64,000 nucleotides of DNA from Acidobacteriota bacterium (GCA_965263035.1 OZ253580.1:5504001-5568000); one strand, 5' to 3'. Positions 32,759 through 57,638 are shown, counted from the first letter of the stretch. Program-made: numbers and translations. The notes: generated by a model not told the origin, from the letters alone.

Positions 32759-32891
32759 TTAATAAGGCCTGTGCAAACGAATGGACAGCATTGTTACCGG
32801 GTCACCAAAAGGGATCGACACTGACTCGGATGCGCCGGTATTTGAAGCATTAGTCCATGATAATTTGAAGAAAACTAACCCCCATTTCTCA

Positions 32892-36882: not shown

Positions 36883-37126
36883 CTCTACACACCGACACGA
36901 TAATCAGTTGGTTTAACAGCATTTCAGTGGTTTTCTTATCTACATGAATTCGAGAGCCGTCTGGCCGACTCGAATGCGGTGACGAATGCCGAAATCCGGC
37001 GATGGTCAGGGGCATTTGACCTCCCACCGGCACTCATGAGCGAGGTTTCTCCCCCAAGAGCCGACTCCAGGGCAGAGTCCGTCCCGCGGACTCCCAACCG
37101 GGCGTCTTCCATAGGGCTGGTTCTCG

Positions 37127-38539: not shown

Positions 38540-39167
38540 AAGGTCGCGTTCCTTCTGCTTTGTAAGTTATTGATTACACAACACTTATAGCAGAATACGC
38601 GGCCTTTATCTATCTTTCTGTTGAGATTTCCGGGCTACGCGAGCACTTCGGGTTGGAGCAAGACTGATATCTACGGCGATCATTCCGATGTCTATACGTC
38701 TGTGGATTTGCCCGAGATCATTTTGCCGCGGCATCAACACCTCGGTGATTACGCTAGCGTTGTATCGCGGCTCATCGAGATTTTTTCGAAAATCGCCAAG
38801 ACGGACGAACTCACCCTCTATCGCAACTTGGTTGCGGCCGACCGTGATGTCATACGGGTACGCACTGCTGAAAGCGACGATGGCAGCGTAGTCGCAAGCG
38901 GCGGAATCAATCTCATGCGGGGTGCGCACGACATGCTCTTGGCTGCGGCCTGCTCACTAAGGAATCCCCAACCTCTCTATCGGGCCGGTGCAAACAAAGA
39001 GGCCAGCGACTACTTGCGCCGAGTTCGCTTGGGACAGACTGAACAGGGTAGTTTCGTTATCACACTGCTGACACCTGTTGTTCCGCCACGGATACAGCCA
39101 ACACTCGGCCGAGAATATGATCGAGACGACGATCCAATCGAGCGGCAGGTGACACGGCGTCTAGCTA

Positions 39168-40817: not shown

Positions 40818-41943
40818 TAGCTAGCGCTCTTGCCGCTACTCGAAAAGCGACTGAAAGAACGGTCAAAGGAGATGCCAGCGCCTTCTCGGAGGCCGTGAAT
40901 GACGGTGTAAGCGCCAATCTGTGTGAGGCACTTGTTGAAGTGATTGAACCATTCCAGACAGTGGATGTTAGTCTGACCTGGGCTCGGACACGTCCGACAC
41001 ATCAAGCCCAGGATATCATTCACTTTGCCGCTGACGATGCTCCCATTTTGCGCGAAGCCTCACGGTTGTTCCGAGACCACGAACCGTGCCCGGATAAGAC
41101 TTTGTTTGGCGTTGTGCGGACGCTGAGTCGTGGCGAGGCCGAAACGAAAGGAACAGTTACTTTGCTGGCATCCATCGACGGGACGATCAAGTCAGTCAAA
41201 ACCGTTTTGCAGCAGTCTGACTACGAGCGGGCGATCTTGGCTCATAAAGAGAAGGCCCCAGTAGTAATGAAGGGTGATCTTGAGCGCTCTGGACAACGAT
41301 GGCGCTTGCTGAACCCGAAAATTGTAAATGTCATCCAGGGTAGCGAGTAGAGCCCGGGGTTATCGTGCCAAAGAAACAGCCCACACCCCAACCCGACCCC
41401 AAAGACAGAGCCCCGCTTCCATGCGCGACCTGGAAGATGTTTTCGGTCAGCTAATAGCAGCACCTCCTGGCAAGTTGAAGAGTGAGAATAGGGAGCCTGC
41501 ACGGCAGAATTGAGGCAGCGTTACAGACTGGTCCGTCGGCGTTGATGGCCAGCCTTGCTGATTTTGCTACATAAATCCCTTAAGTTAACGGACGAAGCCC
41601 GGTGCGGAACCGTGCCGGAAAGTATATTCTGGTCGGCAGGAGGAAGGCCCACCGAGACTCCGCATAATCGGCGGGAGCACGGGCTCCGCCCAGTTCTGAC
41701 CATGGCGACGGGATCCCCTTCGGTCCGTTCGATGGTCGTTTTTAGTGGAACGCTCCTCATTCTCCCATCATCGGCGGATACGGATTCCTGCGGCGCAGGC
41801 TCCTAGCCCGGATAGCCTCCGCCGGTCTCCGCGCCGGCCCTCCGGGTGACACCCCTGGCCCGCTGCGGCTCAGAGGCCCTTAGGGCCGGAAGGTGCCCTT
41901 CCGGCCAGGCAGCACGCCCAGGAAGACCACCGGTGAGGGGGCG

Positions 41944-42130
41944 TCAGGCGTCTTTGGGCCGTGGCGCCAAGTCGAACAGTGCCCGGTCCTGGTCGCGCTC
42001 CAGGAACTCATCGAGGCCCTTCATGAACCGGGTCATGAACACCGGGTCGGCTTGGCTGACGCTGTCGATGTAGGACCCGAGCAGGATCAAGCGGCGGGTG
42101 CGGCGCTTGCGGTCGGCGGCGGTGACGCGC
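41944..42130 (-). pseudogene. mobC: 5'-truncated plasmid mobilisation accessory gene (IncQ MobC-like)
   Basis: Manual translation: RVTAADRKRRTRRLILLGSYID...LDEFLERDQDRALFDLAPRPKDA*; no start codon, overlapped by the methyltransferase 3' end. Confidence 0.6.
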
Positions 42131-42998
42131 CCAGGCGCTGAGCAATTATCAGCACGTGGTCATTGTCATGCGTGATGTGCGTCATGTCGCGGAACGCCTG
42201 CCGCACGCGCTGGCGGAAGGTGTCGATCGCCGCGCGGAGCGCATCTTCTGAATACAGCCGAAAGGTCGAATAATGATAGTGGGTGACTTGTTCGACGAGT
42301 CGAACCAAGGAGGAGGTGACCGGCCACGCAACCGTCTGCGCGCGCACCGACCTGAAGGCACCGGTGGCTTCCAGGGCGGCTCGCACATCGTTGACCTCAT
42401 GGAGTCTCGTTTCCCGCGTGGCAAACTCGGGAAAGTGGCGGCCCCAGATTGTGCGGCGGTTCTGCTCTGGGGTTCGCATATAGACGACGAGCTGGCCGGA
42501 GGGGGTGAGCACCCGAGACGCCTCGCCAGCAAACCGGGCGAGGTCGAAGTGGTGCACGGCATTGAAGCAGGTCATCACGTCACAGATGGAGGCCCGGAAC
42601 GGGAGCGTTTCGACGGCCCCGACCAGGTGCCGCGTACGCAGACCCGCGTGTCTGTTGCGGATGCGTGCTTGCCTGAGCATGGGCGGACTCAGATCCAGGC
42701 CGATGGAAACGACCTGCATGGCAAGAGCTGAGCCTAAGCAATGATTGACCGCGTCCAGGTACCGTCCCGAGCCCGTGGCGACGTCCACAAGCCGCACGGG
42801 TCTCCCTAAGTCCACGGCGCGAGCCACTACGTCGCTGATGATACGCACGGCCTCGAAATCCAGCTCGCGCAGCGTTCGATACCGTGCAGACACCTTGGCG
42901 AAGTGGTCGCTCAACCGCACCGTGCGACCGCGCGCTTCCCAGTCGTCCGGCCCAGGGGTAATCTCGACAGTCAATTCCGGAGTGCCTCCCGTGGCCAT
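42087..42998 (-). CDS. Class I SAM-dependent methyltransferase
   Basis: LVDVATGSG, GLDLSPPML, ETLPF, AVHHF, RVLTPSG. Confidence 0.8.
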   Translation of the reverse strand: MATGGTPELTVEITPGPDDWEARGRTVRLSDHFAKVSARYRTLRELDFEAVRIISDVVARAVDLGRPVRLVDVATGSGRYLDAVNHCLGSALAMQVVSIGLDLSPPMLRQARIRNRHAGLRTRHLVGAVETLPFRASICDVMTCFNAVHHFDLARFAGEASRVLTPSGQLVVYMRTPEQNRRTIWGRHFPEFATRETRLHEVNDVRAALEATGAFRSVRAQTVAWPVTSSLVRLVEQVTHYHYSTFRLYSEDALRAAIDTFRQRVRQAFRDMTHITHDNDHVLIIAQRLGASPPPTASAAPAA

Positions 42999-43257
42999 CA
43001 GTTTTCTACGTGGAACGCCGGACCCCACGGCGGGATCGATTCAGGGGGCTCGACGACAATGCACCCTCAAACTCTGCCGCTACTCCGGCAACCTGTCAAG
43101 CGCTACGGTGATAGGAACCTCCAACCCGCCTGGTGCGCGGAGGCGGCCCGGGCTGATTGGGGGAGGCCCTCTCCCCCATCAGACTCCAGATCCTCTTCCG
43201 CCAGCGGCGCAAAGCGGGGCGACCCCCGCAGAAATCAGAGGTCAGGGACGTGGGTCA

Positions 43258-43285
43258 GAGTACGATAAAGTATATTATACGTAGC
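43258..43285. other. dif-like tyrosine-recombinase core site
   Basis: GAGTACGATAA-AGTATA-TTATACGTAGC: 11-6-11 layout with inner ATAA/TTAT symmetry, ending 4 nt before the recombinase ATG. Confidence 0.55.
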
Positions 43286-43289
43286 TAAT

Positions 43290-44480
43290 ATGAGCGACAC
43301 CGACCTCGCCCTCAGAACCGACGATTCGCCTGCCGAAAAGGACCTCGAAGGGACCTTCCCGGCCATTCTCGTGAGGGCCGGCGCGAGCGCCTGCCTCGCC
43401 GCGGACGAGTTCTTCTCCGCGCGGATCTCCAACCCCCATACGCGAACCGCCTACGCCCACCAGGTGAGCCGGTTCCTCGCTTGGTGCGAGGACGAGGGGC
43501 TGGAGCTGCACCAGGTCACGCCAGGGTTGGCCGGCCGGTTCCTGGACGAGCTCCCCGGTGGTGCCCCCACCCGGAACCAGGCCCTGGCCGGACTGCGCCA
43601 CTTCTTCGATACCCTGGTGGCCCGGCACGCGGCGGTCCTCAATCCCTTTCAGTCGGTCCGGGGGGTGCGCCACCCGCACGGGGAGGGCCGGACGCCCGAG
43701 GTGACGGTCGACCAGGCCCGGCAGCTCCTCGCCTCCATCAAAACCCGCGACGTGTACGGGCTTCGGGACCGGGCGGTCCTCGGGACGCTCATCTACACCG
43801 GCGCCCGGGTCGGGGCCATCGCCCGGCTCCGGATGCAGGATCTTCGCGACAACGGCAAGTACCGGTCGCTGCAGTTTGCGGAAAAAGGAGGGAAGGCGCG
43901 GGAGATCCCGGTGCGCCACGATCTCGACGAGTGGATCGCGGCCTACCTCGAGGGGGCCGGGCTTGAGGACGCGCCCCAGGCCTCGCCGCTGTATCGGGCC
44001 GGGCAGCGCCGCGGCAGTCCGTTGACCGATCGGGCGATGTCGCCTCTCGCCATCCAGCTGATACTCAAGCGCCGGCTCAAGGCGGCCGGGTTGCCGAAGA
44101 TCCTCTCGCCCCACTCGTTCCGGGTCCTGGTGGTCACGGACCTGCTTTCCCAGAACGTGCCGCTTGAGTACGTTCAGTACCTGGCCGGTCACGCCCACCC
44201 CCGCACTACCCAGATCTACGACCGGCGCCGCCGCCGCGTCTCCCGCAATTTGGTGGAAGGGGACGGAGAAGGGGACAGTCACCTCGTCTCGCGTCAAGTG
44301 CCACCGGCTCTCGTCCCGGGAACACCCTACCGGACCGAACCTGATCCGCGGTTTGGAGAAGGATCCCGAGTCCTTGCTGGCGAACATCCTGGATCCCAAC
44401 CGTTTCATCGAACCCCAGTATCTGCAGTACGTGGCGACGGACCTCAAAGGGGGTCTCTACACCGGCCTGCTGCGGGATGA
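43290..44480 (+). CDS. Tyrosine recombinase; the native C-terminus appears replaced by read-through across a repeat junction at about 44260
   Basis: Catalytic set TGAR, EKGGK, HSFR, AGH, TTQIY; residues after RNLVE are encoded by the repeat and by an off-frame heme-gene copy. Confidence 0.88.
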   Translation: MSDTDLALRTDDSPAEKDLEGTFPAILVRAGASACLAADEFFSARISNPHTRTAYAHQVSRFLAWCEDEGLELHQVTPGLAGRFLDELPGGAPTRNQALAGLRHFFDTLVARHAAVLNPFQSVRGVRHPHGEGRTPEVTVDQARQLLASIKTRDVYGLRDRAVLGTLIYTGARVGAIARLRMQDLRDNGKYRSLQFAEKGGKAREIPVRHDLDEWIAAYLEGAGLEDAPQASPLYRAGQRRGSPLTDRAMSPLAIQLILKRRLKAAGLPKILSPHSFRVLVVTDLLSQNVPLEYVQYLAGHAHPRTTQIYDRRRRRVSRNLVEGDGEGDSHLVSRQVPPALVPGTPYRTEPDPRFGEGSRVLAGEHPGSQPFHRTPVSAVRGDGPQRGSLHRPAAG

Positions 44481-44766
44481 AACGGCCACCAGCGTCACCC
44501 TGGTGGAGGGCGACGACCTGCGGAACACCCTGTTGCGGGAGAACATCCGCGAGATCCGGGCGACGACCAACTCCCTCATGCCCGAGGGCCTGGAAGAGAA
44601 CATCGACCACCAGGAGATGGCCGATCTGATCTCCTTCATCCTCAAGTATCAGTACGAGGTCGGCACCGAGAGCGCCGGCATCGGCTACGGGGAGGAAGTC
44701 TACGAGGAGATGATGCTTCACCCGTCGCTGAGGCCGGAGAGTCCGAAACCGCAAAAGGGGAATTAG
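44291..44766 (+). pseudogene. Near-identical duplicate of the last 476 bp of the PVC heme-protein gene (32283-32758)
   Basis: Direct comparison shows about a dozen substitutions; begins right after the first family A repeat. Confidence 0.92.
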
Positions 44767-45132
44767 CTGGCTTCAGGTAGGACGAGCGACGCGCAATAGC
44801 GTGCGATAATGCGCAGAATAGGATCATCTGAAGACAGTTAAACGACCCTATTTTCCGCTCTGCGGCGGCGCCGTACGCCGGCGTTTCTGGTCCGCACGGG
44901 AAAGCGGGATCCCGAGCTCGAGCTCTGGACTTGGTCCATACCGGCCGACATCTACAGCCGTGGTCCACGTCGAGGACTTGGTCCACAGGGAAGCCCGGAT
45001 CCGGAACTCGAGGCCCTGGATCCCGAGCGAACGGCCGCGGCGCCGTATGCCGGTGCCTCCAGCTGCTCACGGGCCGGGGCCGACCATACCTGATCCTTGT
45101 ACGGAGAAGGGGACAGTCACTTCCTTTCGTCA

Positions 45133-45951
45133 TTATCCGGTATCTTCTCCATCCGAACCTGGGGGCGGCGACTCAATGGCCGATGATCTCACACGCGCTC
45201 TGACCGACGACCGATGCACAACCGTTTTCACGACCTGGGCGAACCACGGCGCGGCATGCGGCGGCACCACGACCTCTTTCACCAGGATGTCCAGATTCAC
45301 AGAAATGTATCGACCTCGCTGAACCGCAACGTCGGGATCGAGGCGAATGTCCCCGTCCTCCGAAGGCGGGCAGGGCAGAACTGCACGCACCTCGCCCTCT
45401 CCGCGGTACTCGATCCGCTTATGGAAGAGCGGGGCCCATCCGAACCTCGACACTTCCTGTTGGCGGTAATCGATGTACTTTACCTGCCCGAAGGTGATTG
45501 GCAGTTCGGGAACCGAGCAAATTGACTCTTGCAAAGCCTGGTAGGTGGTACGGACCGCTACTCCTTCCGTGCCGGCGTAGGCTTCCCACATGAGGCTGGA
45601 TTCGTGGCCGGACTCCGTCCAGCAACTTATCAAGGCGGCCCGCGCCATCTTGTGCAGAGTGTCGCGAACGAGGTCTTCCGCTTCCCGCAGAGGATCTCCA
45701 GACTTGGGAGTTAGCGGCGGATAGATAAATCCCTCGTACCTGTCCGCCATTTCGCCGACCAAGGAGAAAAACAGCGCCCTGCGTTCCAGCAGGGAGGAGA
45801 ACTTTGCGAAGCTCATGTAACGCCAGAGCGTGGCGGTTGCATCTGGTTCCGACGGCTCCCACGGAGTCTCCCAAGCGGAATCGCCACTTGAAAACAACCG
45901 TTGCTCGCCCAACGCCGCTCCGATTAGCGGCTTTCCATATTCATGAGTCAT
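45133..45951 (-). CDS. DUF2971-like hypothetical protein
   Basis: LWRYMS, ISCW, ESSLMWEAYA, VKYID, FHKR..Y..E.EVR; fills the interval between two family A repeats almost exactly. Confidence 0.65.
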   Translation of the reverse strand: MTHEYGKPLIGAALGEQRLFSSGDSAWETPWEPSEPDATATLWRYMSFAKFSSLLERRALFFSLVGEMADRYEGFIYPPLTPKSGDPLREAEDLVRDTLHKMARAALISCWTESGHESSLMWEAYAGTEGVAVRTTYQALQESICSVPELPITFGQVKYIDYRQQEVSRFGWAPLFHKRIEYRGEGEVRAVLPCPPSEDGDIRLDPDVAVQRGRYISVNLDILVKEVVVPPHAAPWFAQVVKTVVHRSSVRARVRSSAIESPPPGSDGEDTG

Positions 45952-46534
45952 TGCCAGCAGCCTGCTCTAAAACGCGGGAGAAGGGGACAGTCACCACCTC
46001 TCATTCTACAAAGGGACACCTTCAAGACCATCGAAGCCGTCCTGGGACCGCATCGTCCTCATCGTCCGAGCGGCCGCGTGCTGTTCAGAGTTCGCGGCGC
46101 AACCGGCACAGCTTACTCTGGCCAGTGCTTCTTCCGCTATTCGAATAATGACGACAGTCTCCTCGCGAGAAGGGGACAGTCACCTCGTCTCGCCGGTCAC
46201 TTTTGCGACGCAGGATTCCAGGCCCGTCGGCGCGGGAGAAGGGGACGGTCACCTCGTCTCGCCGCGCGAGTTCTCAAGGGACGGACAAGGGGACAGTCAC
46301 CTCCTCTCGCACCGCACCATGCGTACGGCTGCCCATTTCCCGATACATACGATGAACTACAGAACCACTTCAAGAGTGCCTTTGATCTCTTGGAGGGTCA
46401 GGCCTGTCTATTTCATGGCGTCTGCAGGAAACTGACAGGTGGAATCAACGGCAACGGCATTATTACGTTTCGTGTGTTTCTGGTCCTTATCAGTCAATCA
46501 TGGGAAAATCGGTGCGCTGGTACTGAAAGAATTA

Positions 46535-47356
46535 ATGAGTGTCGAACATTATTGCGTCGCGGCTACGGTGCTTGGGGCTGCTGTTGCCATAGTGGGCCTT
46601 GGCACTACGCTTAGGCTAGTGCAGGGGATTGTGGACCGGGAATGGAGAAGACTCCGATACAAGGTAGACCAAATTGTCGCGGAGATGGACTCTGCTGATT
46701 CTCCAAAGCCATCCCATCAGATGTGTCAGTTTTTGGTGGTCGGGGAAGATCGTCGGTTCCATCATCATCCAGGTGTGGATCCAATAGCGCTGGGCAGAGC
46801 CGTTTGGAAGACGTTCTATTGCGGCCAACGCCAGGGAGCGTCAACTATTGCGATGCAATTCGTGCGCACTTTAACTGGGCGCTACGAATGCACCTATCGG
46901 CGCAAGTTGCTTGAAATGATTCTTGCAGTTCGGGTGACCCACCACATTGGCCGCGCTCGGCTGCCGGCTCTCTATCTCTGGATCGCATATTACGGGTGGC
47001 AGATGAGAGGTTTCAGGCAGGCTTGTCTACGAGTTCGTATCGACCCACATACCTCCGGCGCAGCCGAATCGGCACTGCTTGTTGCTCGACTCAAGTACCC
47101 GGAAACACGGAGCGTGAGCCGCAAACAAGAGCGAAGAATTCAACGTCGGGCGGACCACCTAACGTCGTTTCGAACTTCCAGTAAAAACAATAGACTTTGG
47201 AGCCAATTAGCATTCTGGATCAATGTCACGTGTTGGAATTGGCAGGCTGAGGTCGAGAGTAGACACGGACAACGATCATCTAATTATGGCCTTCGCGGGA
47301 TGTTCGTAACAGATTCCAAAAGTACCGGCCAGTCTACGATTCCATCTGGTCTTTGA
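46535..47356 (+). CDS. Stand-alone GT51 transglycosylase-domain protein
   Basis: EDRRFHHHPGVD, GASTIAMQ, RKLLE, LYL..AYYG motifs after one TM helix; low GC; start uncertain. Confidence 0.7.
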   Translation: MSVEHYCVAATVLGAAVAIVGLGTTLRLVQGIVDREWRRLRYKVDQIVAEMDSADSPKPSHQMCQFLVVGEDRRFHHHPGVDPIALGRAVWKTFYCGQRQGASTIAMQFVRTLTGRYECTYRRKLLEMILAVRVTHHIGRARLPALYLWIAYYGWQMRGFRQACLRVRIDPHTSGAAESALLVARLKYPETRSVSRKQERRIQRRADHLTSFRTSSKNNRLWSQLAFWINVTCWNWQAEVESRHGQRSSNYGLRGMFVTDSKSTGQSTIPSGL

Positions 47357-47371
47357 TGAGCGTATTTCTCG

Positions 47372-48442
47372 GTGGGAATTCGAAGGGAATCGGGGTCTTT
47401 ATTTGAAGATTTCGAGCCCCCATATGCAGCCACTTGGATTACGGAGAACCCGGGCGGTTCTGCGGGGCAAATACGTAGACTAATGGCCGTAGAAATGCAG
47501 GGCAAATTCATTCCAAACACCTATCAAATTCTCGTGATGATTCTAGCGTTTGCGTTCTGCGGGCTGGTGTGGGCAGGAGACCACTATCAAAGTCTTGCAC
47601 CGAGTCCCGTCAATTACGAGGACTTCTCTCTATCCGATTTGGGGTCCCAACGAACAGTTATCGTCCGAACTCTAACAGGCGGAATCGGAGTCCTGGCCTT
47701 AAAGGTCGGATGGGGTGGCAGGGAGTCGCCCACTTTTCTCGTTGAAACGCTTGCAAGCCAGGATCGAGCGGGTAAGAGCGACCCGACGAATACGGAAACA
47801 TGGTATCTCAAGCTTTGCAATCAGATCCGCGAGGCGCTCATTGCAGCGACTGTCGAGGCTCTTGTTACAGTTATCATATTCGGCCTCGGCGGATTCATAT
47901 TCTTCAAGTACGTTGTTCGACCGCCCGATCTATCTGGGTGTTGGAAATTCACTGTGGAATACGAAAACACCGCCTACTCCAAGTTCAGCGGTCTACAGGT
48001 TACATACCAGGTCTTACTGATTCAGCAGGGCCTCAAACTATCTGGTACGGGCGAGAAACTATCTGATCGCGGACCAATACAGGATGCTAAAGACTACGTT
48101 GGTAAATACCGAACGAAGATCCAAATCGTTGGCAACGTCACACACAATTATTTCTCGCGTGATGTCGTCGCGCTTCATTACGATGAGGGCGGTGAGCGTC
48201 GCAAGAGTTCGACTGTGCACCGGCTCGTGGAATGCGGTGGGGGAAGAATGAGTGGTTGTTTTTGGTCCACGATCGCCAACACCTCGGGCCCAGTCTGGTG
48301 GGAACGTTGTGCCTCTAACATCGACTATGAGCCCGTGACGCCTCCTGGACGTTTGATGGTGGCTTCCACGATTTCGGACCGTGCAAGGAACAACTTGATG
48401 GTGAAGGCACGAAGGTGCCTTCACCCACCCAATGGCGACTGA
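47372..48442 (+). CDS. Hypothetical membrane protein with TM plus beta-strand-rich C-terminal domain (Cap15/S-2TM-beta-like)
   Basis: TM helix followed by PDLSGCW and about 8 predicted beta strands; low GC; start uncertain. Confidence 0.4.
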   Translation: MGIRRESGSLFEDFEPPYAATWITENPGGSAGQIRRLMAVEMQGKFIPNTYQILVMILAFAFCGLVWAGDHYQSLAPSPVNYEDFSLSDLGSQRTVIVRTLTGGIGVLALKVGWGGRESPTFLVETLASQDRAGKSDPTNTETWYLKLCNQIREALIAATVEALVTVIIFGLGGFIFFKYVVRPPDLSGCWKFTVEYENTAYSKFSGLQVTYQVLLIQQGLKLSGTGEKLSDRGPIQDAKDYVGKYRTKIQIVGNVTHNYFSRDVVALHYDEGGERRKSSTVHRLVECGGGRMSGCFWSTIANTSGPVWWERCASNIDYEPVTPPGRLMVASTISDRARNNLMVKARRCLHPPNGD

Positions 48443-48581
48443 ACGCGTGAGATTAGAGGGGGACGGCGGGAGAACGGGCCAGTCTCCTCCTCTTGTCCTT
48501 GCGGCTTTCCGGATGAGAACCAAGTAAAGGTCCGATACCGGCCGCGCGAGTTCCCAACGCCGCCGGGCTCTCCTGGATCGG

Positions 48582-49811
48582 CTAACTGACCGGTCCAAAA
48601 TCGGGAATCTTCAGCCAGTCTCCACCCTTCAGCGCCGAGTGGAATCCGACGATTCCGGGCGCAGTATAGGACAGGGCTTGATGGACATCGACCGACGGGG
48701 CGCGTTGCTCCAGACATGCCGAAACGAACTCATGAATGATAAAGGGATGGGAACCCCCGTGCCCTCCAACGTTCCTCAGTGACGGCGGCAGTCCTGCGGA
48801 GTGGTCCGCCTGCAACAGTTCAGGTTCTGAATGAGGACGGGTCACGTAAGCGGAAGGGCACAGACCCTTCCACCTCTCGAACAACGACATTTCGGTCCCA
48901 AAATAATCCGCTCCTTCACGGCCGGGAGCGGCGGTCCACCAGTGGATGTTGATTCGGGAGGAGTTTCCACCCGACGTTTTGAAGAAGAAGGTCGTGTTCA
49001 AAAACGGGTTGCCGTACTCGTTCTCCTTGAAGAACGGGTGATCCAGCGGCGTTCCGACCGCCGCGACCTCAACCAGGCTCTCGCCGGTCACATGAACGAT
49101 CGGACCGCTGGCATGGGTGATATAGAGGCCTTGAGCGTTGCCATACCGCCATGTCGGCTTACCCTCGTGAAAGAACATCCGCTCCAGATACTCCGGCATC
49201 TCTCCCTTCGCCAAGTAGGTACCGTGGTCATGGATGTAATCCCCCTGAGTGTAGTAGATCCTCCCGAACTCTCCTTCTTCCCTCAGTCTGCGGGCAGTCA
49301 TGGTGGATGGGTGAAAGCAGCTGGTTTCGGCCATCATGTAGATCTGGCCGGTCTTTTTGACGGACTCCAGAAGCTGCTGGCACTGTTCCAAGGTTGTGGC
49401 GGCCGGAACCGCACTGATGGCGTGCCGACCGGATTCCATGACCTCCACGCAGTGCGGAACGTGATGGGGCGCCCCGGTGAAGATGGCGACCGCATCCACT
49501 GAGGGGTTCTTGAGCATGGCACGGAAATCGGCATAGGCGTTAGAGCACTCGAACCGCTCTTCCAGCCTTTTCCGGCGGTCCTCCCTGAGGTCAGCGACCG
49601 CGGTCACCTTGCAGTTGGGATGCCGCTGCCAGGGAAACGCGGCGCCGAATCCGCCGCCTACCACGCCGATCCGCAACTGTTTGCCAGCCTCGAGCGGGCG
49701 GTACCCTTTTCCGAGTAGCGAAGCGGTCAATGCGGTCGTACCGGCTGCCTTCGCACCCTGGAAAAACACTCGGCGGCTTATGGATTGGGATCGCGCCTCC
49801 GATCTCACCAT
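48582..49811 (-). CDS. Gfo/Idh/MocA oxidoreductase, Tat-exported
   Basis: SRRVFF, IGVVGGGFG, SAVPAA, YMMAET, GGHGGSH. Confidence 0.85.
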   Translation of the reverse strand: MVRSEARSQSISRRVFFQGAKAAGTTALTASLLGKGYRPLEAGKQLRIGVVGGGFGAAFPWQRHPNCKVTAVADLREDRRKRLEERFECSNAYADFRAMLKNPSVDAVAIFTGAPHHVPHCVEVMESGRHAISAVPAATTLEQCQQLLESVKKTGQIYMMAETSCFHPSTMTARRLREEGEFGRIYYTQGDYIHDHGTYLAKGEMPEYLERMFFHEGKPTWRYGNAQGLYITHASGPIVHVTGESLVEVAAVGTPLDHPFFKENEYGNPFLNTTFFFKTSGGNSSRINIHWWTAAPGREGADYFGTEMSLFERWKGLCPSAYVTRPHSEPELLQADHSAGLPPSLRNVGGHGGSHPFIIHEFVSACLEQRAPSVDVHQALSYTAPGIVGFHSALKGGDWLKIPDFGPVS

Positions 49812-50074
49812 GATGGGCGTCCTTTCTGGGGGCTGGAATTTGGGTGAATCCTAGAGGACACCGAATCGGGCGGTCAAGGCAGCGTAGCGTGGGCTCGGCT
49901 ACGGAAACGGCGCTTGGAGGGAAGGAAACCAGAGAAGGGGACAGTCACCGTCTCTGGTGCCCCACGCGGTCGGGCTCGCTTCGTCGGCGACGCAAGCCTT
50001 TAGCTCGGGGGCGCCAGCGATCAGTTCCGCGAAGCACTGGCACGCTCTGAGAGAAGGAAGAAAAGTCGAACCGA

Positions 50075-51031
50075 TCAGATCAGCATCTTTCTAAGCCGTC
50101 GGAGCTTCAGCTTCACCCCAACCTTCTCGTCAACATCGAGGGCATTCTCGTACTGCTCGATCGCTTGGTGGAGATCTCCCGCCTGTTCATGAATTTCTCC
50201 CGACAACCGAAGGGCCTTGGCGATGATGCGGTCATCGTCTTGGACGTCCTGCTTGTCAAATGCCTTCTTAACTAGGGCTAGGAATTTCTCTGCATTTCCA
50301 CTAGAAATATCGTCAGAGTAGGCTGCAAGTTTTTCTCTGCAAACATCAAGGATATCCTGACCTGATCCGTAGCGGATTCGGCTCTGATCCCAATTATCGG
50401 AGTCCTCGAACCGTCCATCCTCATACGAGTATTCGAACGTCCCAAATTGCTCATAGACAAGGCCGAGCTTCCGGTCCATGTCGTCGAACCAATAGGACTC
50501 GGCCCAGCCGGTTTCCGGCTTCTTTTTCCAACGAATCTCGCCGGTGGTGAGGTCGAGAAATACCAATGCTCCCCCATCTTCTTTGGAGGGCGCATTCGCA
50601 AGCTGTACGACGGCGTACTTGCCGCTGTCACTGATGCCTGTACTGATCGCATTGGCTCGAAACTCATGCTTTAGGATTTGGTCTCCGTCAGAGGAGAATC
50701 CGTAAACTCGGCTCTTGAGGGCGTTGCCGAAACACCAGTCTGTCAGGATAATGGTTCCGTTTCTTGCCACCTTTCCATCGTTCGGGCGTTCAAGCTTCCC
50801 TGAGCACAACTTCGAATTCCCACGCTTCAGGACATACGCTCCATGCGGATCGTCGCCGTCGCTAAAGAATTGAGACCACGTCAGCCGGTATGTTCCGTCC
50901 GTTGATTCGGCATATGGTCCGACGCTCTCAATGAAATCCAGGTCGATAACTTTGGGCTTGATTCCGGTTGGCTTCGGCTTGGATCCTTGCGGAGATCGGA
51001 GAGCTCTCAGGACGGCATTGATGAAACTCAT
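50075..51031 (-). CDS. Hypothetical protein (beta-propeller-like N-part, TPR-like C-terminus)
   Basis: ATG 51031 with GGAG RBS; GEIHEQAGDLHQAIEQYENAL..D TPR-like helix pair; lower GC. Confidence 0.6.
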   Translation of the reverse strand: MSFINAVLRALRSPQGSKPKPTGIKPKVIDLDFIESVGPYAESTDGTYRLTWSQFFSDGDDPHGAYVLKRGNSKLCSGKLERPNDGKVARNGTIILTDWCFGNALKSRVYGFSSDGDQILKHEFRANAISTGISDSGKYAVVQLANAPSKEDGGALVFLDLTTGEIRWKKKPETGWAESYWFDDMDRKLGLVYEQFGTFEYSYEDGRFEDSDNWDQSRIRYGSGQDILDVCREKLAAYSDDISSGNAEKFLALVKKAFDKQDVQDDDRIIAKALRLSGEIHEQAGDLHQAIEQYENALDVDEKVGVKLKLRRLRKMLI

Positions 51032-51298
51032 AGGAATCTCCTTTGGCTCATAATGACCTTCAGCGTGCGGGGCGCGGACGTCCAAACTGACCAAGTGGAG
51101 TTCCCTGCGGCCGCCGCGGACCGCCAGCAGCCAGTGTATCAGGGGAAACGATAGGGGAAAGTCACCTTCTCTCGCCGGCGGCGCGGGGCGGTCCCAGGGA
51201 GAAGGGGATAGTGCGCCAGGTTCGCGAGCCGTGCGGGGGGAAACGGAGAAGGGGACAGTCACTTCCTCTCGGTCACCTCCTCTCGCGGGCCTGTTACG

Positions 51299-51414
51299 GG
51301 GTCTGGAAGAGAACAGCGACCGCCAGGAAATGGCCGACCTGATCACCTTCATCCTCAAGTATCAAACCGAGGTCGGCACGTAGAGCGGCGGCATCGGCTA
51401 TGGGGAGGACGTCT
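51299..51414 (+). pseudogene. Degenerate third copy of the heme-protein gene 3' region
   Basis: GLEENSDRQEMADLITFILKYQTEVGT then frame loss; follows a family A repeat. Confidence 0.8.
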
Positions 51415-51430
51415 CTTTAGTTGAGTCTCG

Positions 51431-51853
51431 TCACTGCGGGACGGGAACCACCGGCAAAGTCGTGAAGATTCGGCTTCCGGCATCCAACTCCAGGGCGATC
51501 CCGGCGAACCGTTCCCCTTCAGGAGCGGTGCAACGAACCGATCCGACGAAGTCGGACGTATCGGTCTGGGTGAACAACTCGTGGATAAACTTGGCCGTCT
51601 GGCCGTTGCCGGCCAGTGGAATGTCCTTCGTCTCCAATTCCGCGCCTGCTTTCATCAATTGGCAACTCACGTCGATCGGATTCTCTCCCAGGTTCCGGAT
51701 CGCGGCTCCCGTGTTGATTCCGCCCTCTTGGCGGCGGGCCGGGAAAATGACGTCGTTTGCGGGCGCACTGACCCCCACGCCGGCCACGCCCAGGGACGGG
51801 GCATCGAACCGCAGGACCCCGCCGATGCGGGCTGCGCCGCCCGCGTCCTCCCG
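51431..51853 (-). pseudogene. 5'-truncated copy of the surface-protein C-terminal domain
   Basis: Near-identical to 53364-53768; similarity stops at the edge of the repeat at about 51854. Confidence 0.8.
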
Positions 51854-51887
51854 AGAGAGAAAGGGACAGTCACCTCCTTGCGCCTCT

Positions 51888-51908
51888 TGTTATCATAATC
51901 TGATAACA
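51888..51908. promoter_or_regulatory. Putative operator of the TA operon
   Basis: Perfect inverted repeat TGTTATCA-TAATC-TGATAACA ending 7 nt before the ATG. Confidence 0.65.
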
Positions 51909-51915
51909 TCAATCG

Positions 51916-52287
51916 ATGACGACGCCGGACCGAGACCCGGGACTGGACACCCTGCTCGACCTTCACGGCGAGACGCTGTTTGTGGACGACACGGGGCATT
52001 GGGTGAAGTTCGTCGTAGTGCGGACCGAGGCGACGCCCGAACGACCGCACGCCCTCCGCTACTCGTTGACACTGCACGCGCCGGATGGCGCCAGATTGGT
52101 TGGATTCGATAATGCGCACCCGGTTAGGGAGCGGCCAGGCCCGGGCAGGCGGCGACGGACAGAGCGCGACCATCGGCATCGGCTGCGGAAGGTCCGGCCC
52201 TATGAGTACAGAGACGCAGTGACGCTCCTCGAGGATTTCTGGAAAGAAGTGGACCAAGTTCTTGAAGAAGGAGGCTCGATTCCATGA
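51916..52287 (+). CDS. DUF6516/TumE-like putative toxin
   Basis: RPHALRYSLTLH...RLVGFDNAH...DHRH...PYEY..LLEDFW. Confidence 0.75.
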   Translation: MTTPDRDPGLDTLLDLHGETLFVDDTGHWVKFVVVRTEATPERPHALRYSLTLHAPDGARLVGFDNAHPVRERPGPGRRRRTERDHRHRLRKVRPYEYRDAVTLLEDFWKEVDQVLEEGGSIP

Positions 52288-52652
52288 AGACACTAGAGAT
52301 CGGGATTGCCGGTTACGACCAGATGAAGGCGCGCACCCTGGCGATTGCCCGCGGGGAGCACACGCCCGCGAAAGGTGAGCCGAAGGTGTGGTTCACCTCG
52401 ATCGAGAGCTTTGCAAAGTTGCTCTCCGAGCACAACAGACATCTCCTGGAGCTGATTGCCCGAGAGAAACCGGGTTCGCTCACGGAGCTCGCGGAGATGG
52501 CCGGGCGAAGCAAGTCGAACCTCTCGCGAACCCTGAAGACGATGTCTAAATACGGGCTCGTGGAATTGCGACACGGAGAGCGTGGGAGGCTGGTACCGCG
52601 GGTGCCTTACGATCACGTGAGGCTCGATGTCTCGTTGACTTCAACGTGGTGA
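52284..52652 (+). CDS. Winged-HTH putative antitoxin
   Basis: ATGA overlap with the upstream gene; SLTELAEMAGRSKSNLSRTLKTM..YGLV HTH. Confidence 0.8.
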   Translation: MKTLEIGIAGYDQMKARTLAIARGEHTPAKGEPKVWFTSIESFAKLLSEHNRHLLELIAREKPGSLTELAEMAGRSKSNLSRTLKTMSKYGLVELRHGERGRLVPRVPYDHVRLDVSLTSTW

Positions 52653-52825
52653 AGCAGCGGTACACATAAGCCCCACAGAAGGTGGGCCGCCGGTCCCCGT
52701 CTCTCAGCCCGGAACAGCCCATCAATGGTACCGGGCAGTGATCCAGATCACCGCTCTCCAGCCGTGTCCATGCGAGAGTCAGGAGGGGGCCCTTCAGCCT
52801 CTCCGAAACTCCCGGAATCGGCGGT

Positions 52826-53117
52826 TCAAAATTCCCGCTCCTTTTTCTTGGAAGGGGTCTGAAGCCTCGCGACTCTCTCCAGGAACTCCCGGGCGACCCG
52901 TTCGTACCGGTCCCGATCCAGGTTCCAGGCCCTGCCGTGGCTGGCGCCGGGGACCGTCACGCACCGGACCAGATCGGATCGGGAATTCGCCAGCAGTTGG
53001 CTGGTTCGGAGCGGAACCAGGGTGTCCTCGCCGCCGTGGAAAACCAGCGTGGGCGCCTGCAAGTATTTCGTGTTCCCGACATAATTTAGTGCCTTCCAGG
53101 GGACTCCGAATCGAACC
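52826..53117 (-). pseudogene. C-terminal fragment of an alpha/beta hydrolase
   Basis: PTLVFHGGEDTLVP...VPGASH; the frame stays open up to the family A repeat at about 53118 and the nucleophile region is missing. Confidence 0.7.
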
Positions 53118-53159
53118 GGAGAAGGGGACAGTCACCTCCTCTGAAGGGACCGGACGCGT

Positions 53160-53358
53160 GCTGAGGGATGAAGCGGGCACCGGCGTGACCCTGGTGGAGG
53201 GCGACGACCTCCGGAATACCCTGTTGCAGGAGAACATCCGTGAAATCCGGGCCACGACCAACTCCCTCATGCCCGAGGGTCTGGAGGAGAACATCGACCA
53301 CCAGGAGATGGCCGACCTTATCTCCTTCATCCTCAAGTATCAGTACGAGGTCGGTACC
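53160..53358 (+). pseudogene. Fourth partial copy of the heme-protein gene 3' region
   Basis: LRDEAGTGVTLVEGDDLRNTLL...SLMPEGLEENIDHQEMADLISFILKYQYEVGT; follows a family A repeat. Confidence 0.85.
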
Positions 53359-54872
53359 GGAATCACCGGCAAAGTCGTGAAGATTCGGCTATCGGCATCC
53401 ATCTCCAGGGCGACCCCGGTGAACCGTTCCCCTTCAGGAGCGGTGCAACGAACGGACCCGACGAAGTCGGACGTATCGGTCTGGGTGAACAACTCGTGGA
53501 TGAACTTGGCCGTCTGTCCGTTGCCGGCCAGTGGAATGTCCTTCGTCTCCAATACCGCGCCTGCTTTCATCAATTGGCAACTCACTTCGATCGGATTCTC
53601 TCCCAGGTTCCGGATCGCGGCTCCGGTGTTGATTCCACCCTCTTGGCGGCGGGCCGGAAAAATGACGTCGTTTCCGGGCGCACTTGCCCCCACGCCGGCC
53701 ACGCCCAGGGACGGGGCGTCGAACCGCAGGACCCCGCCGATGCGGGCCGCGCCGCCCGCGTCCTCCCGGTTTTTGTCGCCCGCGAGATTAAAGCGCACAA
53801 TGTCGGAGAACACCGTTACCGATCCGGTCACCAACTCCCCTCGCCCATGGGTCGAAATCACCAGTTCACCCAGAGGTTCAATCCCCGTCCGGACAGTCAA
53901 CGCTCCGTCCTCCCGGACTTCCAGATCTTCCGTCACGTCCACCACCGATTCGGGGTCGATGAGTGCGCCCATTTGATCGTAGAAGTAGATGGCCGAGTAA
54001 GTCGCCGAGGGCTCCACGTTCACCAACACCAAGTCCGAGGTGATGGACCCTCCATTCCCGAAATGCGCAAAGCTCAGAGACTGTCGCAGGTCCGCCGTGA
54101 TTGGAAGCATGGCGTTGTCCGATTGAACCTGGAGAAGTCGGTCGAAGTAAGCGATCCGATTCGGCATAGTCTCCAATATTGTCCGCTCGTAAGGTCGGGA
54201 GATTCGAGCCGAACGATATCGGACAGCCAAGTACGCCAGGAACGACTCGGTGATGTCTTCTCGCTCCGGATGATCTCGTGCGTAGTCGGAAATGAAGTTG
54301 CCATCGGCTGTCTGGGCGGCACGCCAATCGACGGCGTTGACAATCCCCATCCAGGGTGGGTCCAGGGAAGTGTGCGCCCCCTCGTGGACCAATTCCTCCT
54401 CCAAAAAACCCTTGGCGATGGACTCTTCCGCATGATCTGCATGAATGAGAATATTGTTGTTTCCACCCCCGAGAGGCTGATTCCCTTTATGGATCCAGAC
54501 CGTCTTGACATTGGTTCGAAGAAGGGTTGGCAATTGGCCGATGAATCCCCCATATTTGCTAGCCTCCGCCATCGCGGCCGATGCACTGCCGAACTCTGGA
54601 TTGACCTGAATCTCCGCAGTCAGCCCATCATCAAATCGGGCCATGAACAAATAGGCGTTGACCACGATCCAGTCCTTGACCCGCTGGTCGAACATCGTCC
54701 GTTGCCCCCGTCCGGCTTCCGTCACACTCACGAGCGCAGTCGGATCTGATAGCGTGATGATGTCCGGGTCGATCCAGACGGTGCCCGAATAGGGTGGATC
54801 GGTCTGGTCCTTGCTCTGAACCTCTCGGCCGAGCGTGGCCAGCAGGAATACAGCTAGCATTATGTGCCTCAT
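53340..54872 (-). CDS. Secreted HExxH (zincin-like) protein with the shared C-terminal FAHFGNG...IFTTLPV domain
   Basis: Signal peptide; EEELVHEGAH and a downstream EDITES; C-terminal domain shared with the giant surface protein. Confidence 0.7.
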   Translation of the reverse strand: MRHIMLAVFLLATLGREVQSKDQTDPPYSGTVWIDPDIITLSDPTALVSVTEAGRGQRTMFDQRVKDWIVVNAYLFMARFDDGLTAEIQVNPEFGSASAAMAEASKYGGFIGQLPTLLRTNVKTVWIHKGNQPLGGGNNNILIHADHAEESIAKGFLEEELVHEGAHTSLDPPWMGIVNAVDWRAAQTADGNFISDYARDHPEREDITESFLAYLAVRYRSARISRPYERTILETMPNRIAYFDRLLQVQSDNAMLPITADLRQSLSFAHFGNGGSITSDLVLVNVEPSATYSAIYFYDQMGALIDPESVVDVTEDLEVREDGALTVRTGIEPLGELVISTHGRGELVTGSVTVFSDIVRFNLAGDKNREDAGGAARIGGVLRFDAPSLGVAGVGASAPGNDVIFPARRQEGGINTGAAIRNLGENPIEVSCQLMKAGAVLETKDIPLAGNGQTAKFIHELFTQTDTSDFVGSVRCTAPEGERFTGVALEMDADSRIFTTLPVIPVPTSY

Positions 54873-54944
54873 GGACGAAGGATAGTCGCGGAGGAGGGGG
54901 ACGTAGTCGCGGAGGAGGGGACAGTCACCTTCTCGCGCGGTGTC

Positions 54945-57638
54945 CTACCTGCCCCACGCGTAGCGGATGCGCACGTAGTAGTACGCGCCGTTGAATCCCC
55001 AAGGTGTGTACTCGCTGTACTTCTCCCCGACCGACATCGCTCGCGCGCTCTCGTCGGGATAGGTATTGAGCAGGTTCTGGGCGCCGATCGCCAGCGTCAT
55101 GCCCTCGGAGAGATCGATGCTGCCCTCCACGTCGACGATCGGGCGCCCGTCGAAGAAGCCCTGCTCGATACCGGCGGACGGGATGAACGCCTGCCGAAAC
55201 CCGCTGTCCCAGTCGTACCAGCCGCCATAGTAGCTCACGCGCCCGAGCAGTTGGACCCGCCCGAGGCGCTGGTTGATGCCGGCGCTCCAGCGGACCCGCG
55301 GCAGCGCGTAGGCGTACTCGGCCAGCCGCCGGTCGCTGAGCAGACCCTTCTCGTTGTCGGTCACCTCGGTGTCGGTGTAGTTGAAGACGGCGCTGAACAC
55401 CGTGTTGCCACGCAGCGCAATTGGCGTGTAGGTCGAGACTACGTCGATCCCCTGCGACCGCGTGGAGAACGCGTTGGTGAAGAACCGGAAATTCTTCAGG
55501 TCGCGGGCGCTCTCGATGTCTTGCGCCAGCAGGTTCTCGATCTCGGCGTCCTGCAGGCTGAAGTTGCTCGTGATGCCGATCCGGTCGGCGACGTTGACGA
55601 GGAAGTAGTCGGCGCTGAAGTTGAACGGCCCGGTGTCGAAGACGACGCCGGCAGTGTAGTTGACGGAGCGTTCAGGCTCCAGCGGCACGCCGCCGCGCAA
55701 CGCCGCCACCGGCGAGATCGACGGGATGACGCCGTTGTTGACCAGGTCTCCGATGGCCGGGTCGAAGGTGGTCGAGATGTTGAAGCCGTTCTGCTGGCCG
55801 GGTGTGGGTGCGCGGAACCCGCTGCTGACGCTGGCGCGCACGAAGGCGAAGCGGGCGGAGACCTTGCCGTTCGTGGTTGTGCCGAAGTCCTCGAAGTGCT
55901 CGACCCGCAGCGCACCGCCCAGGGTCCATCCGCCGTCCACGTCGTTCACTTCGACATCGCCGTACGCCGCGACATTGTTCCGGTTCCAGGTGCCGGCGGC
56001 GAGCGGTCCGTAGCCGAAGAAGCCGTTGGAGCCGGCTGAGAATCCCTGTCCCCGGCCGTACGGGCCGACCGTCCACGACGCCGGCTCGCCCTCGGTGGTC
56101 TGGTACTGCTCGTCGCGCCACTCCGCGCCGGCCGCGATGTTGACCCTGTCCGTCGCGGCGTAGGAGAGATCGAAGTTCAGCCCGATCTCCCGCTGCCGGT
56201 TGCTGCCGAGTTCGAAGGCGGTCGGAGTATCGTAGCCGAGCGAGGCGTTGACGGTGTCGCGGATGAAGAGGTCGGTCTCGTGGGCGCCGACCGAGACGCT
56301 CGTATCCCAGATGACGCCGGCGCCGGTGAAGCCGCGGATGCCGCCCACTACCGACATGTCCTGCGCCTCGCCGCCGAAGTTGGGCGTGAAGCCGCCGGGG
56401 AACCGCTCGTAGAGCGTGAAGCAGTTCGGATTTTCTGCGACCGCCGCGAGCGCCTCGCCGTCGGGGACGTTGCCGACTATCGGCACCGTCGGGCAGTTGC
56501 CGGCGCCGGGCATCCCGGTCTCGGCCCACAGCCGGTCGCCCACGAGTAGCGTGCTGCCGCCGTCCGGGCTGAAGACCCCGCCCCGCGTATTCGGGTTGCG
56601 GAAGAAGAAGCCGCCGGTCACCCGCTTGCTCGCATAGTTGGTATGGCCGTAAAGCTGCACCCCGGTGGAGAACGTGTAACCGAAGTTCCCGAACAGCTTC
56701 AGATCGTCGTCGACCTCCGGTGAACCCCAGATCTGCGGCGTATCCGATGCGACATGTGTGTTCCCCGCGGCGAGAAGCGCGGTGGCGTCGCTACGGGGGG
56801 CGCTCCGGTTCGTCGGATTCGAGCTGCCGTATTCCAGGCTGAGGTTGGCGAAGCCGGTGGCGCCCAGCGGCAGGCCGACATTGCCGGCGACGTTGAAGGC
56901 CTCGCCGTCCCCTTCCTGAAAGGTGCCGGTGTCGAATTCGAGACTACCGCCGGAGGCGGCATCCTTGAGCTGGAAATTCATGACGCCGGCGATGGCGTCC
57001 GAGCCGTACTGCGCCGCCGCACCGTCGCGCAACACTTCGACTTGGCGCAGCGCGATGGCCGGGATGGCGGAGATGTCCGGGCCCTGCGAGCCGTAGGCCA
57101 CGCCGTTGCCGCCGTGCCAGTCGATGATGGACGAGCGGTGGCGTCGCTTTCCGTTCACCAGGACCAGCGTGTGGTCCGGCGCCAGGTTGCGAAGCATCGC
57201 CGGACGGACGACCGTCGACGCATCGCTGATCGGCTGCGTGTTGACGTTGAACGACGGAATGACCGTGCGTAGCTGATCCTGCAGATTGGAGACACCCTGG
57301 TTGGTGATGTCGGACGTCGAGAGCACGTCGACCGGTACCGGCGACTCCGCAACGGTCCGTGGCCGGGCACGGGAGCCGACGACGACGGTCTCCTCAGTGA
57401 GCCCGTCGAGCAACACCTTCAGCTCGTCAGGCGACAGCCCCATCGCCTGGATTTCGGCCACCGAAACGCCGAGCGCGCGGCTGAGCGCTTCGTACCGTTC
57501 TGCCGTCAGGTCTTCCTGTGCGAACGCCGGAGCCGGCAAACCGGCAACGAGTGCAATGAGCAGACTCGATAGGAACACGATGAACATTGATCGATGCGTC
57601 ACTTGCGGTTTCCTCCCTCGGATTCGGCCGGAGGGCAT
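54945..57638 (-). CDS. TonB-dependent receptor
   Basis: ETVVVGSR TonB-box-like, LVLVNGKRRH, VEVLRDGAAAQYGSDAIAGVMN, C-terminal YYVRIRYAW; ATG 57638 has an AGGAGG RBS. Confidence 0.92.
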   Translation of the reverse strand: MPSGRIRGRKPQVTHRSMFIVFLSSLLIALVAGLPAPAFAQEDLTAERYEALSRALGVSVAEIQAMGLSPDELKVLLDGLTEETVVVGSRARPRTVAESPVPVDVLSTSDITNQGVSNLQDQLRTVIPSFNVNTQPISDASTVVRPAMLRNLAPDHTLVLVNGKRRHRSSIIDWHGGNGVAYGSQGPDISAIPAIALRQVEVLRDGAAAQYGSDAIAGVMNFQLKDAASGGSLEFDTGTFQEGDGEAFNVAGNVGLPLGATGFANLSLEYGSSNPTNRSAPRSDATALLAAGNTHVASDTPQIWGSPEVDDDLKLFGNFGYTFSTGVQLYGHTNYASKRVTGGFFFRNPNTRGGVFSPDGGSTLLVGDRLWAETGMPGAGNCPTVPIVGNVPDGEALAAVAENPNCFTLYERFPGGFTPNFGGEAQDMSVVGGIRGFTGAGVIWDTSVSVGAHETDLFIRDTVNASLGYDTPTAFELGSNRQREIGLNFDLSYAATDRVNIAAGAEWRDEQYQTTEGEPASWTVGPYGRGQGFSAGSNGFFGYGPLAAGTWNRNNVAAYGDVEVNDVDGGWTLGGALRVEHFEDFGTTTNGKVSARFAFVRASVSSGFRAPTPGQQNGFNISTTFDPAIGDLVNNGVIPSISPVAALRGGVPLEPERSVNYTAGVVFDTGPFNFSADYFLVNVADRIGITSNFSLQDAEIENLLAQDIESARDLKNFRFFTNAFSTRSQGIDVVSTYTPIALRGNTVFSAVFNYTDTEVTDNEKGLLSDRRLAEYAYALPRVRWSAGINQRLGRVQLLGRVSYYGGWYDWDSGFRQAFIPSAGIEQGFFDGRPIVDVEGSIDLSEGMTLAIGAQNLLNTYPDESARAMSVGEKYSEYTPWGFNGAYYYVRIRYAWGR

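Follow-up and report, generated by a model that had tools for sequence, protein, structure and literature searches.

A 64,000-nt stretch of the genome of an Acidobacteriota soil bacterium (GCA_965263035.1 OZ253580.1:5504001-5568000; referred to as the window, with positions counted from its first nucleotide) carries, between 44261 and 54936, a real, non-integron, cassette-like array built on co-oriented copies of a short palindromic repeat of the TIRYT type. On balance, we consider it probable that the repeat belongs to the TIRYT-type family of a multi-copy Y1 (HUH) transposase encoded elsewhere in the genome, and that its co-oriented copies act as cassette recombination sites. The array had been described in a first-pass annotation made from the window sequence alone. 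To follow it up, the source genome (G000) was compared with eight genomes of the same genus (congeners), a genome of another family of the order (G023), another Acidobacteriota metagenome-assembled genome (MAG; G044) and a Planctomycetota MAG (G041). Counts that include G016 do not depend on it.

A window search with the 12-mer GGGGACAGTCAC returned nine exact copies and four with one mismatch, all on the + strand and all within 44271-54928; outside this interval there were no copies at one mismatch or fewer. The six remaining matches had two mismatches each and represented both strands. The total of 19 matches compares with 9.3 expected, and none of 100 shuffles reached it. Arms were present at 11 clear copies and at two degenerate ones (Table 1), and the armless one-mismatch match at 52949 is probably due to chance. 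The first-pass annotation had counted 12 clear and two degenerate copies on one strand; the strand and the degenerate pair stood, and the clear armed copies were reduced to 11. Its statement that the window holds no copies elsewhere was confirmed, as were intervals of about 50 bp to 2.2 kb (measured at 48-2186 nt) and a second GGGGAC half-site upstream of motif copies, seen for example at 44256 and 46274. In 72 aligned copies from the genus, the consensus comprised a conserved GAGAAGGGGACAGTCAC followed by a weak CTTCTC-like pyrimidine arm, with a conserved part of 17 nt in a whole unit of ~30 nt. The palindrome is real: in-register pairing was found in 72-74% of cells, compared to 47-65% when the partner was slid, and the top strand of the motif in the genus folds into an 8-9-bp hairpin. 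An Rfam search of 42000-57000 at E up to 1 gave zero matches.

The motif is not confined to this locus. The G000 genome (6.2 Mb, 62% GC) contained 45 exact copies, with 0 for a reversed-pattern control, and a profile search found ~75 good copies in ~12 clusters, both orientations being represented overall. Gaps between neighbours were below 10 kb in 52/74 cases, whereas random placement gave 8.4 on average and 17 at most. Neighbours less than 10 kb apart were co-oriented in 47/52 pairs, whereas distant pairs were co-oriented in 6/22. Clusters of both orientations were found on both replichores. Co-orientation within clusters without replichore bias indicates that polarity is local to each array. 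Arm similarity was 0.537 within clusters and 0.455 between them, a difference reached by none of 500 label shuffles. The ~11 further clusters lie in unrelated contexts, and cargo of the other arrays included ten HigA-type antitoxins, a Schlafen/AlbA_2 protein, GmrSD, an APH kinase, a P450, cytochromes and one tnpB. Elsewhere in the genome, motif copies adjoin fragments of recombinase genes and of a tnpB. The motif sits in co-oriented clusters in accessory DNA. A different repeat, GGGGACCGTCAC, was seen at ~20 G000 sites (e.g. 52750, 154675, 1048917) embedded in 50 nt of conserved sequence (TCATAAACCGTTTTCCGGCCAG...); this repeat probably represents the terminus of a different insertion sequence (IS) and is unrelated to the array motif.

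To assess cassette content among relatives, presence was scored at ≥78% identity over ≥100 nt. In 8/8 congeners, an ortholog of the gene that precedes the array in G000 (the anchor gene) was followed just downstream by a motif array. Cargo order between strains, which the first-pass annotation had proposed comparing, proved variable: at this same locus, cargo and order differed in 8/8 relatives. All eight carried the oxidoreductase cassette (88-93% identity; in G008 a contig end interrupts it), and its left neighbour differed from one genome to the next. The toxin-antitoxin cassette was present in 5/8, directly after the oxidoreductase cassette in four and before it in G004. The DUF2971-like, transglycosylase and TPR cassettes were found in 0/8 of the relatives' arrays at the anchor locus. 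G000 has two extra cassettes between the oxidoreductase and toxin-antitoxin cassettes, and G007 carries the oxidoreductase cassette in two copies.

Breakpoints were compared among 183 distinct motif copies from the nine species and G023, using 250-nt flanks. Homology ran in register through the motif in 10 pairs. Homology shared on the left only (6 pairs) ended at +16 to +30 of the core, and homology shared on the right only (31 pairs) started at -18 to 0 of the core; many of these pairs derive from one cassette family and hence are not independent. In recent cases (95-100% identity), the homology switch fell inside the conserved 17-mer. In G005, a motif-90 nt-motif arrangement corresponds cleanly to a single motif in G000, the outer flanks being the same. 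These alignments show cassette gains, losses, duplications and re-orderings between species that break inside the motif, and the repeats do form the boundaries of modular cassettes. Joints at motif positions in sequencing-run contigs (Logan) are accounted for by other motif copies and paralogs that cross-map. In run X1 there was no cover over ~46272-48407 and no listed contig bridged the gap; nothing is claimed from it.

Motif-bounded units of other kinds were also observed. Tandem units occur at G002:C1:232900-236150 (697 nt, three times) and G023:C1:1459200-1460750 (~133-203 nt), with motif copies just 20-35 nt apart at these loci. A separate 144-kb contig of G007 (C1) bears arrays with a cassette 95% identical to one on the G000 chromosome at 3.04 Mb. 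In another phylum, G041:C37:15357-15776 holds five co-oriented exact 17-mer copies in units of ~100-130 nt.

The enzyme most closely associated with the motif emerged from G023, which has 18 copies of the motif 15-mer. Its gene for a 311-aa Y1_Tnp protein is preceded by three core copies in forward orientation and followed by six exact array motifs in inverted orientation. The protein matched Pfam Y1_Tnp at 36.6 and 29.1 bits (cut-off 23); in 11 homologs the HUH motif (NH[FY]H) and YVELNAVRAG were invariant or nearly so, and a 130-aa C-terminal extension was conserved. This motif-linked clade was missed by the Pfam scan of G000 and found only via G023. Homologs were 81-85% identical to the G023 protein in G000 (four copies) and 71-80% identical in 8/8 congeners (partial in G008), with 3-12 matches each including fragments, the maximum of 12 being in G007; elsewhere among the genomes searched, identity did not exceed 58% (44-56% in the sister genus). 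The 15-mer was found in 8/8 congeners, G023 and G039 (two copies), and in 0/6 genomes of the sister genus. The distribution of the Y1 clade was the same, except for G039, which has weak Y1 fragments only. The short core RAAGGGGACAG was enriched in the genus and G023 (31-130 copies versus 2-9 in the control), weakly enriched in the sister genus and near background elsewhere.

The four G000 genes (C1:800924-801856, 1560688-1561614, 1832165-1833097 and 5961195-5962121) share 90-97% nucleotide identity over ~1.15-1.2 kb, and all four have inverted GGGACAGTC-core hairpins on both sides, outside the conserved block and at variable distance. The array-type core also flanks Y1 genes in G002 and G005, and in G044 a Y1 gene just 31% identical lies between perfect inverted GGGGACAGTCAC repeats. 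The comparisons show the motif core as inverted repeats around Y1 transposase genes, with the gene clade and the motif in the same genomes, and the linkage to Y1/RAYT genes that had been suggested for checking was borne out. The Y1 clade is the likely enzyme family: the core flanks Y1 genes in inverted orientation, and close relatives are confined to motif-bearing genomes among those searched. At 84-85% identity between G023 and G000, the transposase seems to have been shared horizontally between families. Two other Y1 genes detected by Pfam in G000 ('NHVH'; 2482813 and 3478063) had no flanking motif. TnpB was rejected as a partner: of 13 tblastn matches, just two were near a motif, and of these one is cargo and the other is cut short at the motif. 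Pfam gave no helix-turn-helix (HTH) match in the C-terminal extension at E up to 5, a PDB sequence search with the Y1 protein gave no meaningful match, and an AlphaFold model of the protein (11 sequences) had a mean predicted local distance difference test (pLDDT) score of 51.4, too low for the model to be of use.

We infer that cassette capture is driven by an enzyme. A Y1 enzyme would bind the motif on one DNA strand, nick it and rejoin strands, in the manner of the E. coli RAYT, which cleaves and recombines its own repeats in vitro (PMC3333891). A co-oriented pair would play the part of the two ends, left and right, of an IS200/IS605-type element. The intervening DNA would be excised as a circle with one motif, and this circle would insert at a different motif, regenerating two direct copies. 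Occasional joining of motif to non-motif DNA would give the truncated gene fragments that abut copies. The net behaviour would be integron-like gene shuffling without IntI, attC or attI. A broader proposal, which we hold only tentatively and consider somewhat doubtful, is an HUH-driven counterpart of the integron: a Y1 transposase would use the 17-nt site to excise and insert cassettes, sometimes capturing fragments of resident genes, with locus-anchored arrays being long-lived, reshuffled across the genus and passed between families together with the enzyme.

Several observations weigh against cassette movement by a Y1 transposase. All interspecies differences could be deletions and duplications by general recombination. 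There is no Y1 gene in the window or beside most arrays (the G000 copies are at 0.80, 1.56, 1.83 and 5.96 Mb), and G041 has a four-copy motif cluster, yet its best Y1 match is 31% identical, in a MAG of unknown completeness. The NCBIfam RAYT model matched the Y1 protein over its full length below the cut-off (46.8 versus 80). Motif copies showed no replication-strand bias (44/76 on the leading strand), unlike IS200/IS605. One insertion has a 14-nt flanking duplication, which the proposed model does not predict, and the distances of fragment-motif junctions vary (8, ~20 and ~29 nt). The first-pass annotation had reported that the outer stems vary together, and of this the palindrome survived while compensatory covariation was weak, the observed score being reached by 16/500 and 144/500 shuffles. 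No hairpin formed at the G023 motif (minimum free energy -3.8 versus -4.3 for flank shuffles), and the G041 motif, judged by reading, also lacks one.

The chief alternative is that the repeats are passive and undergo general recombination. They would have been spread by the Y1 enzyme, or would be relics of it, and would simply have accumulated in dispensable DNA. Cassettes would change when direct repeats of 25-30 nt recombine, by homology or by slippage, and when DNA is transferred horizontally with homologous flanks; no enzyme would act on the cassettes. We regard this as unlikely, if far from negligible. Breakpoints do not resolve more finely than the conserved core, many differences fit deletion between direct repeats, the 697-nt units of G002 are tandem duplications, fragment junctions lie at no fixed distance from the core, and no circle evidence was obtained from the material, which comprised assembled contigs only. 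However, local co-orientation in 47/52 pairs without replichore-wide bias is unexplained by independent insertions, and the reversed order in G004, the duplicated cassettes in new contexts in G007, foreign low-GC3 cassettes (GC3, GC content at third codon positions) exactly between copies, and unrelated gene fragments joined right at motif edges all argue against a passive role.

A true site-specific recombinase system of integron-like mechanism, in which a tyrosine or serine recombinase such as the Xer-like protein encoded at 43290-44260 acts on a double-stranded core site, appears improbable. That gene ends exactly at the first copy, the motif is near-palindromic with a conserved, core-site-like centre, and conservative integration yields co-oriented direct repeats. 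The Xer-like protein was nevertheless rejected as the motif enzyme: at least five G000 paralogs are without a motif. Neither G023 nor G008 yielded a member of the family, and G004 and G005 yielded fragments only, whereas all six genomes of the sister genus, which lacks the motif, have it. Moreover, 0/27 Phage_integrase matches lay beside other large arrays, and G000 has no IntI. In 8/8 relatives, one and the same gene precedes the array, and three copies of the 3' part of that gene lie in the G000 array, as might be expected of tandem integrative islands at one attachment site, whose duplicated att scars copy the end of the target gene as in tRNA or ssrA island arrays. We consider this explanation highly improbable, as the motif is not in the anchor gene sequence, ~11 other clusters lie in unrelated contexts and the cassettes carry no integrases. 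Least probable of all is an RNA-level or regulatory element (a terminator, processing site or operator). The 8-9-bp hairpin of the top strand in the genus would suit such a role, but the motif bears no constant relation to gene direction, with copies at the starts and the ends of + and - strand genes alike. Some copies are separated by as little as 20-30 nt, G023 has lost the hairpin, and no Rfam family was matched at E up to 1.

The contents of the array, annotated by Pfam and NCBIfam, and of its surroundings are given in Table 1. Pfam-supported cassette genes lie on both strands, with the motif at gene starts and ends alike. A DUF2971-like gene had been described as fitting exactly between repeats; the fit was close, and the DUF2971 match of the 272-aa open reading frame (ORF) was below threshold (E 0.037, 15.8 bits versus a cut-off of 22). 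The transglycosylase cassette had a GC3 of ~0.5, compared to ~0.8 in native genes. Several intervals consist of gene fragments only, and their homology begins or ends at motif edges. The 510-aa gene near the end of the array shares 92% identity with a paralog at 6.15 Mb that lacks the motif. Just beyond the array, the TonB-dependent receptor ORF ends 8 nt past the last motif copy, in agreement with the first-pass observation that its stop codon abuts a repeat. A 2050-aa ORF at 57829-63981 (-) has a domain repeated many times across the genome, and both the fragment at 51431-51787 and the 510-aa ORF of the array are members of its repeat-domain family.

Table 1. Features of the motif array and adjoining DNA, in window coordinates.
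Feature	Position	Strand	Remarks
Anchor gene, haem-binding, 1055 aa; DUF7133, HEAT and cytochrome c domains	29591-32758	+	
11.5-kb insertion between anchor gene and array	32761-44260	.	G000 only
Xer-like tyrosine recombinase, 3' end truncated	43290-44260	+	Ends exactly at motif copy 1
Motif copy 1	44261-44290	+	Replaces last four codons of recombinase gene; abuts duplicated gene end
Duplicated anchor-gene end	44291-44766	+	97% identical to last 476 nt of anchor gene; starts at motif edge
Motif copy 2	45099-45128	+	
One-gene cassette, 272 aa, weak DUF2971 match	45133-45951	-	Gaps of 4 and 21 nt to flanking motif copies
Motif copy 3	45973-46002	+	
Motif copy 4	46162-46191	+	
Motif copy 5, core GGGGACGGTCAC	46231-46260	+	In G007, same copy and same left flank directly before oxidoreductase cassette
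Motif copy 6	46279-46308	+	Heads transglycosylase cassette
Low-GC3 cassette: transglycosylase (46439-47356) and 356-aa ORF	46439-48442	+	Compared to G007, inserted 14-19 nt into oxidoreductase cassette
Degenerate motif copy	48465-48494	+	
Gfo/Idh/MocA oxidoreductase cassette	48541-49893	-	
Motif copy, perfect 8-bp outer stem	49927-49956	+	
TPR-protein cassette	50075-51358	-	Not found in relatives' arrays
Degenerate motif copy, core GGGGAAAGTCAC	51153-51178	+	
Motif copy, then partial right arm	51241-51270	+	
Fragment cassette	51299-51848	.	Anchor-gene piece 51299-51414 and 3' fragment of repeat-domain gene 51431-51787 (-); also in G007
Motif copy, core AGGGACAGTCAC	51852-51881	+	Heads toxin-antitoxin cassette
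TumE toxin and winged-helix antitoxin pair	51916-52652	+	
Alpha/beta-hydrolase gene fragment	52877-53116	-	Ends at motif
Motif copy	53114-53143	+	
Anchor-gene fragment (53156-53371) and 510-aa gene (53340-54872, -)	53156-54890	.	
Last motif copy	54907-54936	+	Start of homology to TonB-receptor region of G006 and G007

The insertion that separates the anchor gene from the array in G000 is a pile of mobile DNA bounded by the 476-nt direct duplication of the anchor gene 3' end. It contains a group II intron reverse transcriptase/maturase (33444-34724), three DDE transposases (35170-36642, 37127-38539 and 39346-40578), a methyltransferase and the Xer-like recombinase. The IS at 39162-40823 has copies 99-100% identical at genome positions 476876, 3962159 and 5010532. 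The first-pass annotation had stated that the responsible enzyme is not in the window. This holds for the likely enzyme, the Y1 transposase, but the tyrosine recombinase gene directly 5' of the first copy had been overlooked.

The cellular role of 'domesticated' RAYT/TIRYT-type transposases and their repeats is still debated, and the documented activity that we found for such enzymes is in vitro cleavage and recombination only (PMC3333891). Here, accessory genes, among them toxin-antitoxin pairs and restriction-like and metabolic genes, are exchanged between species at exact points marked by repeats of one RAYT/TIRYT-type family. If the enzyme drives this swapping, the arrays would represent a second, independent bacterial route to gene-cassette arrays from single-strand recombination sites, and a natural system for direct tests of RAYT-family function. 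If the repeats are passive, they would still show a short oriented repeat structuring the Acidobacteriota accessory genome.

Similar to integrons, the array has co-oriented sites separating one- or two-gene cassettes, cargo that varies between relatives, toxin-antitoxin cassettes and a fixed chromosomal locus. Integron identity was ruled out by the lack of IntI, the lack of GTTRRRY-type boxes and the presence of genes on both strands: with TIGR02249, the top match across the G000 genome reached 78.7 bits against a cut-off of 265 (53.1 bits for the recombinase at 43290-44260), and no attC boxes (RYYYAAC, GTTRRRY) were present in the 72 aligned copies. Whereas attC sites are 57-141 nt and conserved in structure, the unit here is ~30 nt and conserved in sequence; whereas integron cassette genes are mostly co-oriented behind a common promoter, those here lie on both strands. 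Many of the cassettes here consist of gene fragments, and each genome holds a dozen arrays.

With IS200/IS605 elements and PATEs, the system has in common a Y1 enzyme and, as potential left and right ends, co-oriented hairpins; movement would be by single-strand excision and insertion. In contrast to IS200/IS605, the enzyme lies outside the units, no fixed 4-5-nt target was seen, the copies lack a lagging-strand bias (44/76) and tnpB copies are mostly motif-free (2/13 near a motif). In REP/RAYT systems, too, inverted copies of a short, palindromic, genome-dispersed repeat lie on both sides of a Y1 gene. However, the 72-copy alignment showed no GTAG or CGTC tag of the kind associated with REPtrons and REPINs, copies number in the tens rather than hundreds, neighbours are co-oriented (47/52) where REPINs are inverted doublets, and the transposase is multi-copy where that of REP/RAYT systems is single-copy and vertically inherited.

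The closest likeness is to TIRYTs (TIRtrons). As set out in the article text of Di Nocera et al. 2013 (PMC3733652), TIRYTs are Y1 genes flanked by inverted repeats with the consensus GGGGWSAS, such repeats may build up into families of moderate abundance, as dimers or in clusters, and an Acidobacteria group is defined; most TIRYTs are equated with subclass 2.1 in the text of Quentin et al. 2018 (PMC6006769). The system described here shares a Y1 HUH transposase longer than RAYTs, inverted flanking repeats that fit this consensus (here GGGGACAG), and flanking repeats that also form a dispersed family, found singly, paired and grouped. It differs in that the gene is multi-copy (four in G000, up to 12 in G007). 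For subclass 2.1 a C-terminal HTH is reported; Pfam detects none here at E up to 5. Co-oriented arrays bounding accessory cassettes, and their shuffling between species, are not among the TIRYT features described in the passages covered. Nor were arrays of co-oriented repeats bounding cassettes reshuffled across species found in the article texts covered by our literature search, although supplements may list related repeats; among the matches listed, searches with motif strings gave only unrelated eukaryotic papers. From the first-pass description of an integron-analogous capture array with a non-attC site, the co-oriented sites, the variable modular cargo and the lack of attC remain. The array is not an integron, and it is not a wholly new kind of element. 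Because GGGGACAG fits GGGGWSAS and the protein is long with a conserved C-terminal part, the element is assigned to a known kind, its repeat fitting the TIRYT/TIRtron class as described in the 2013 article text (PMC3733652).

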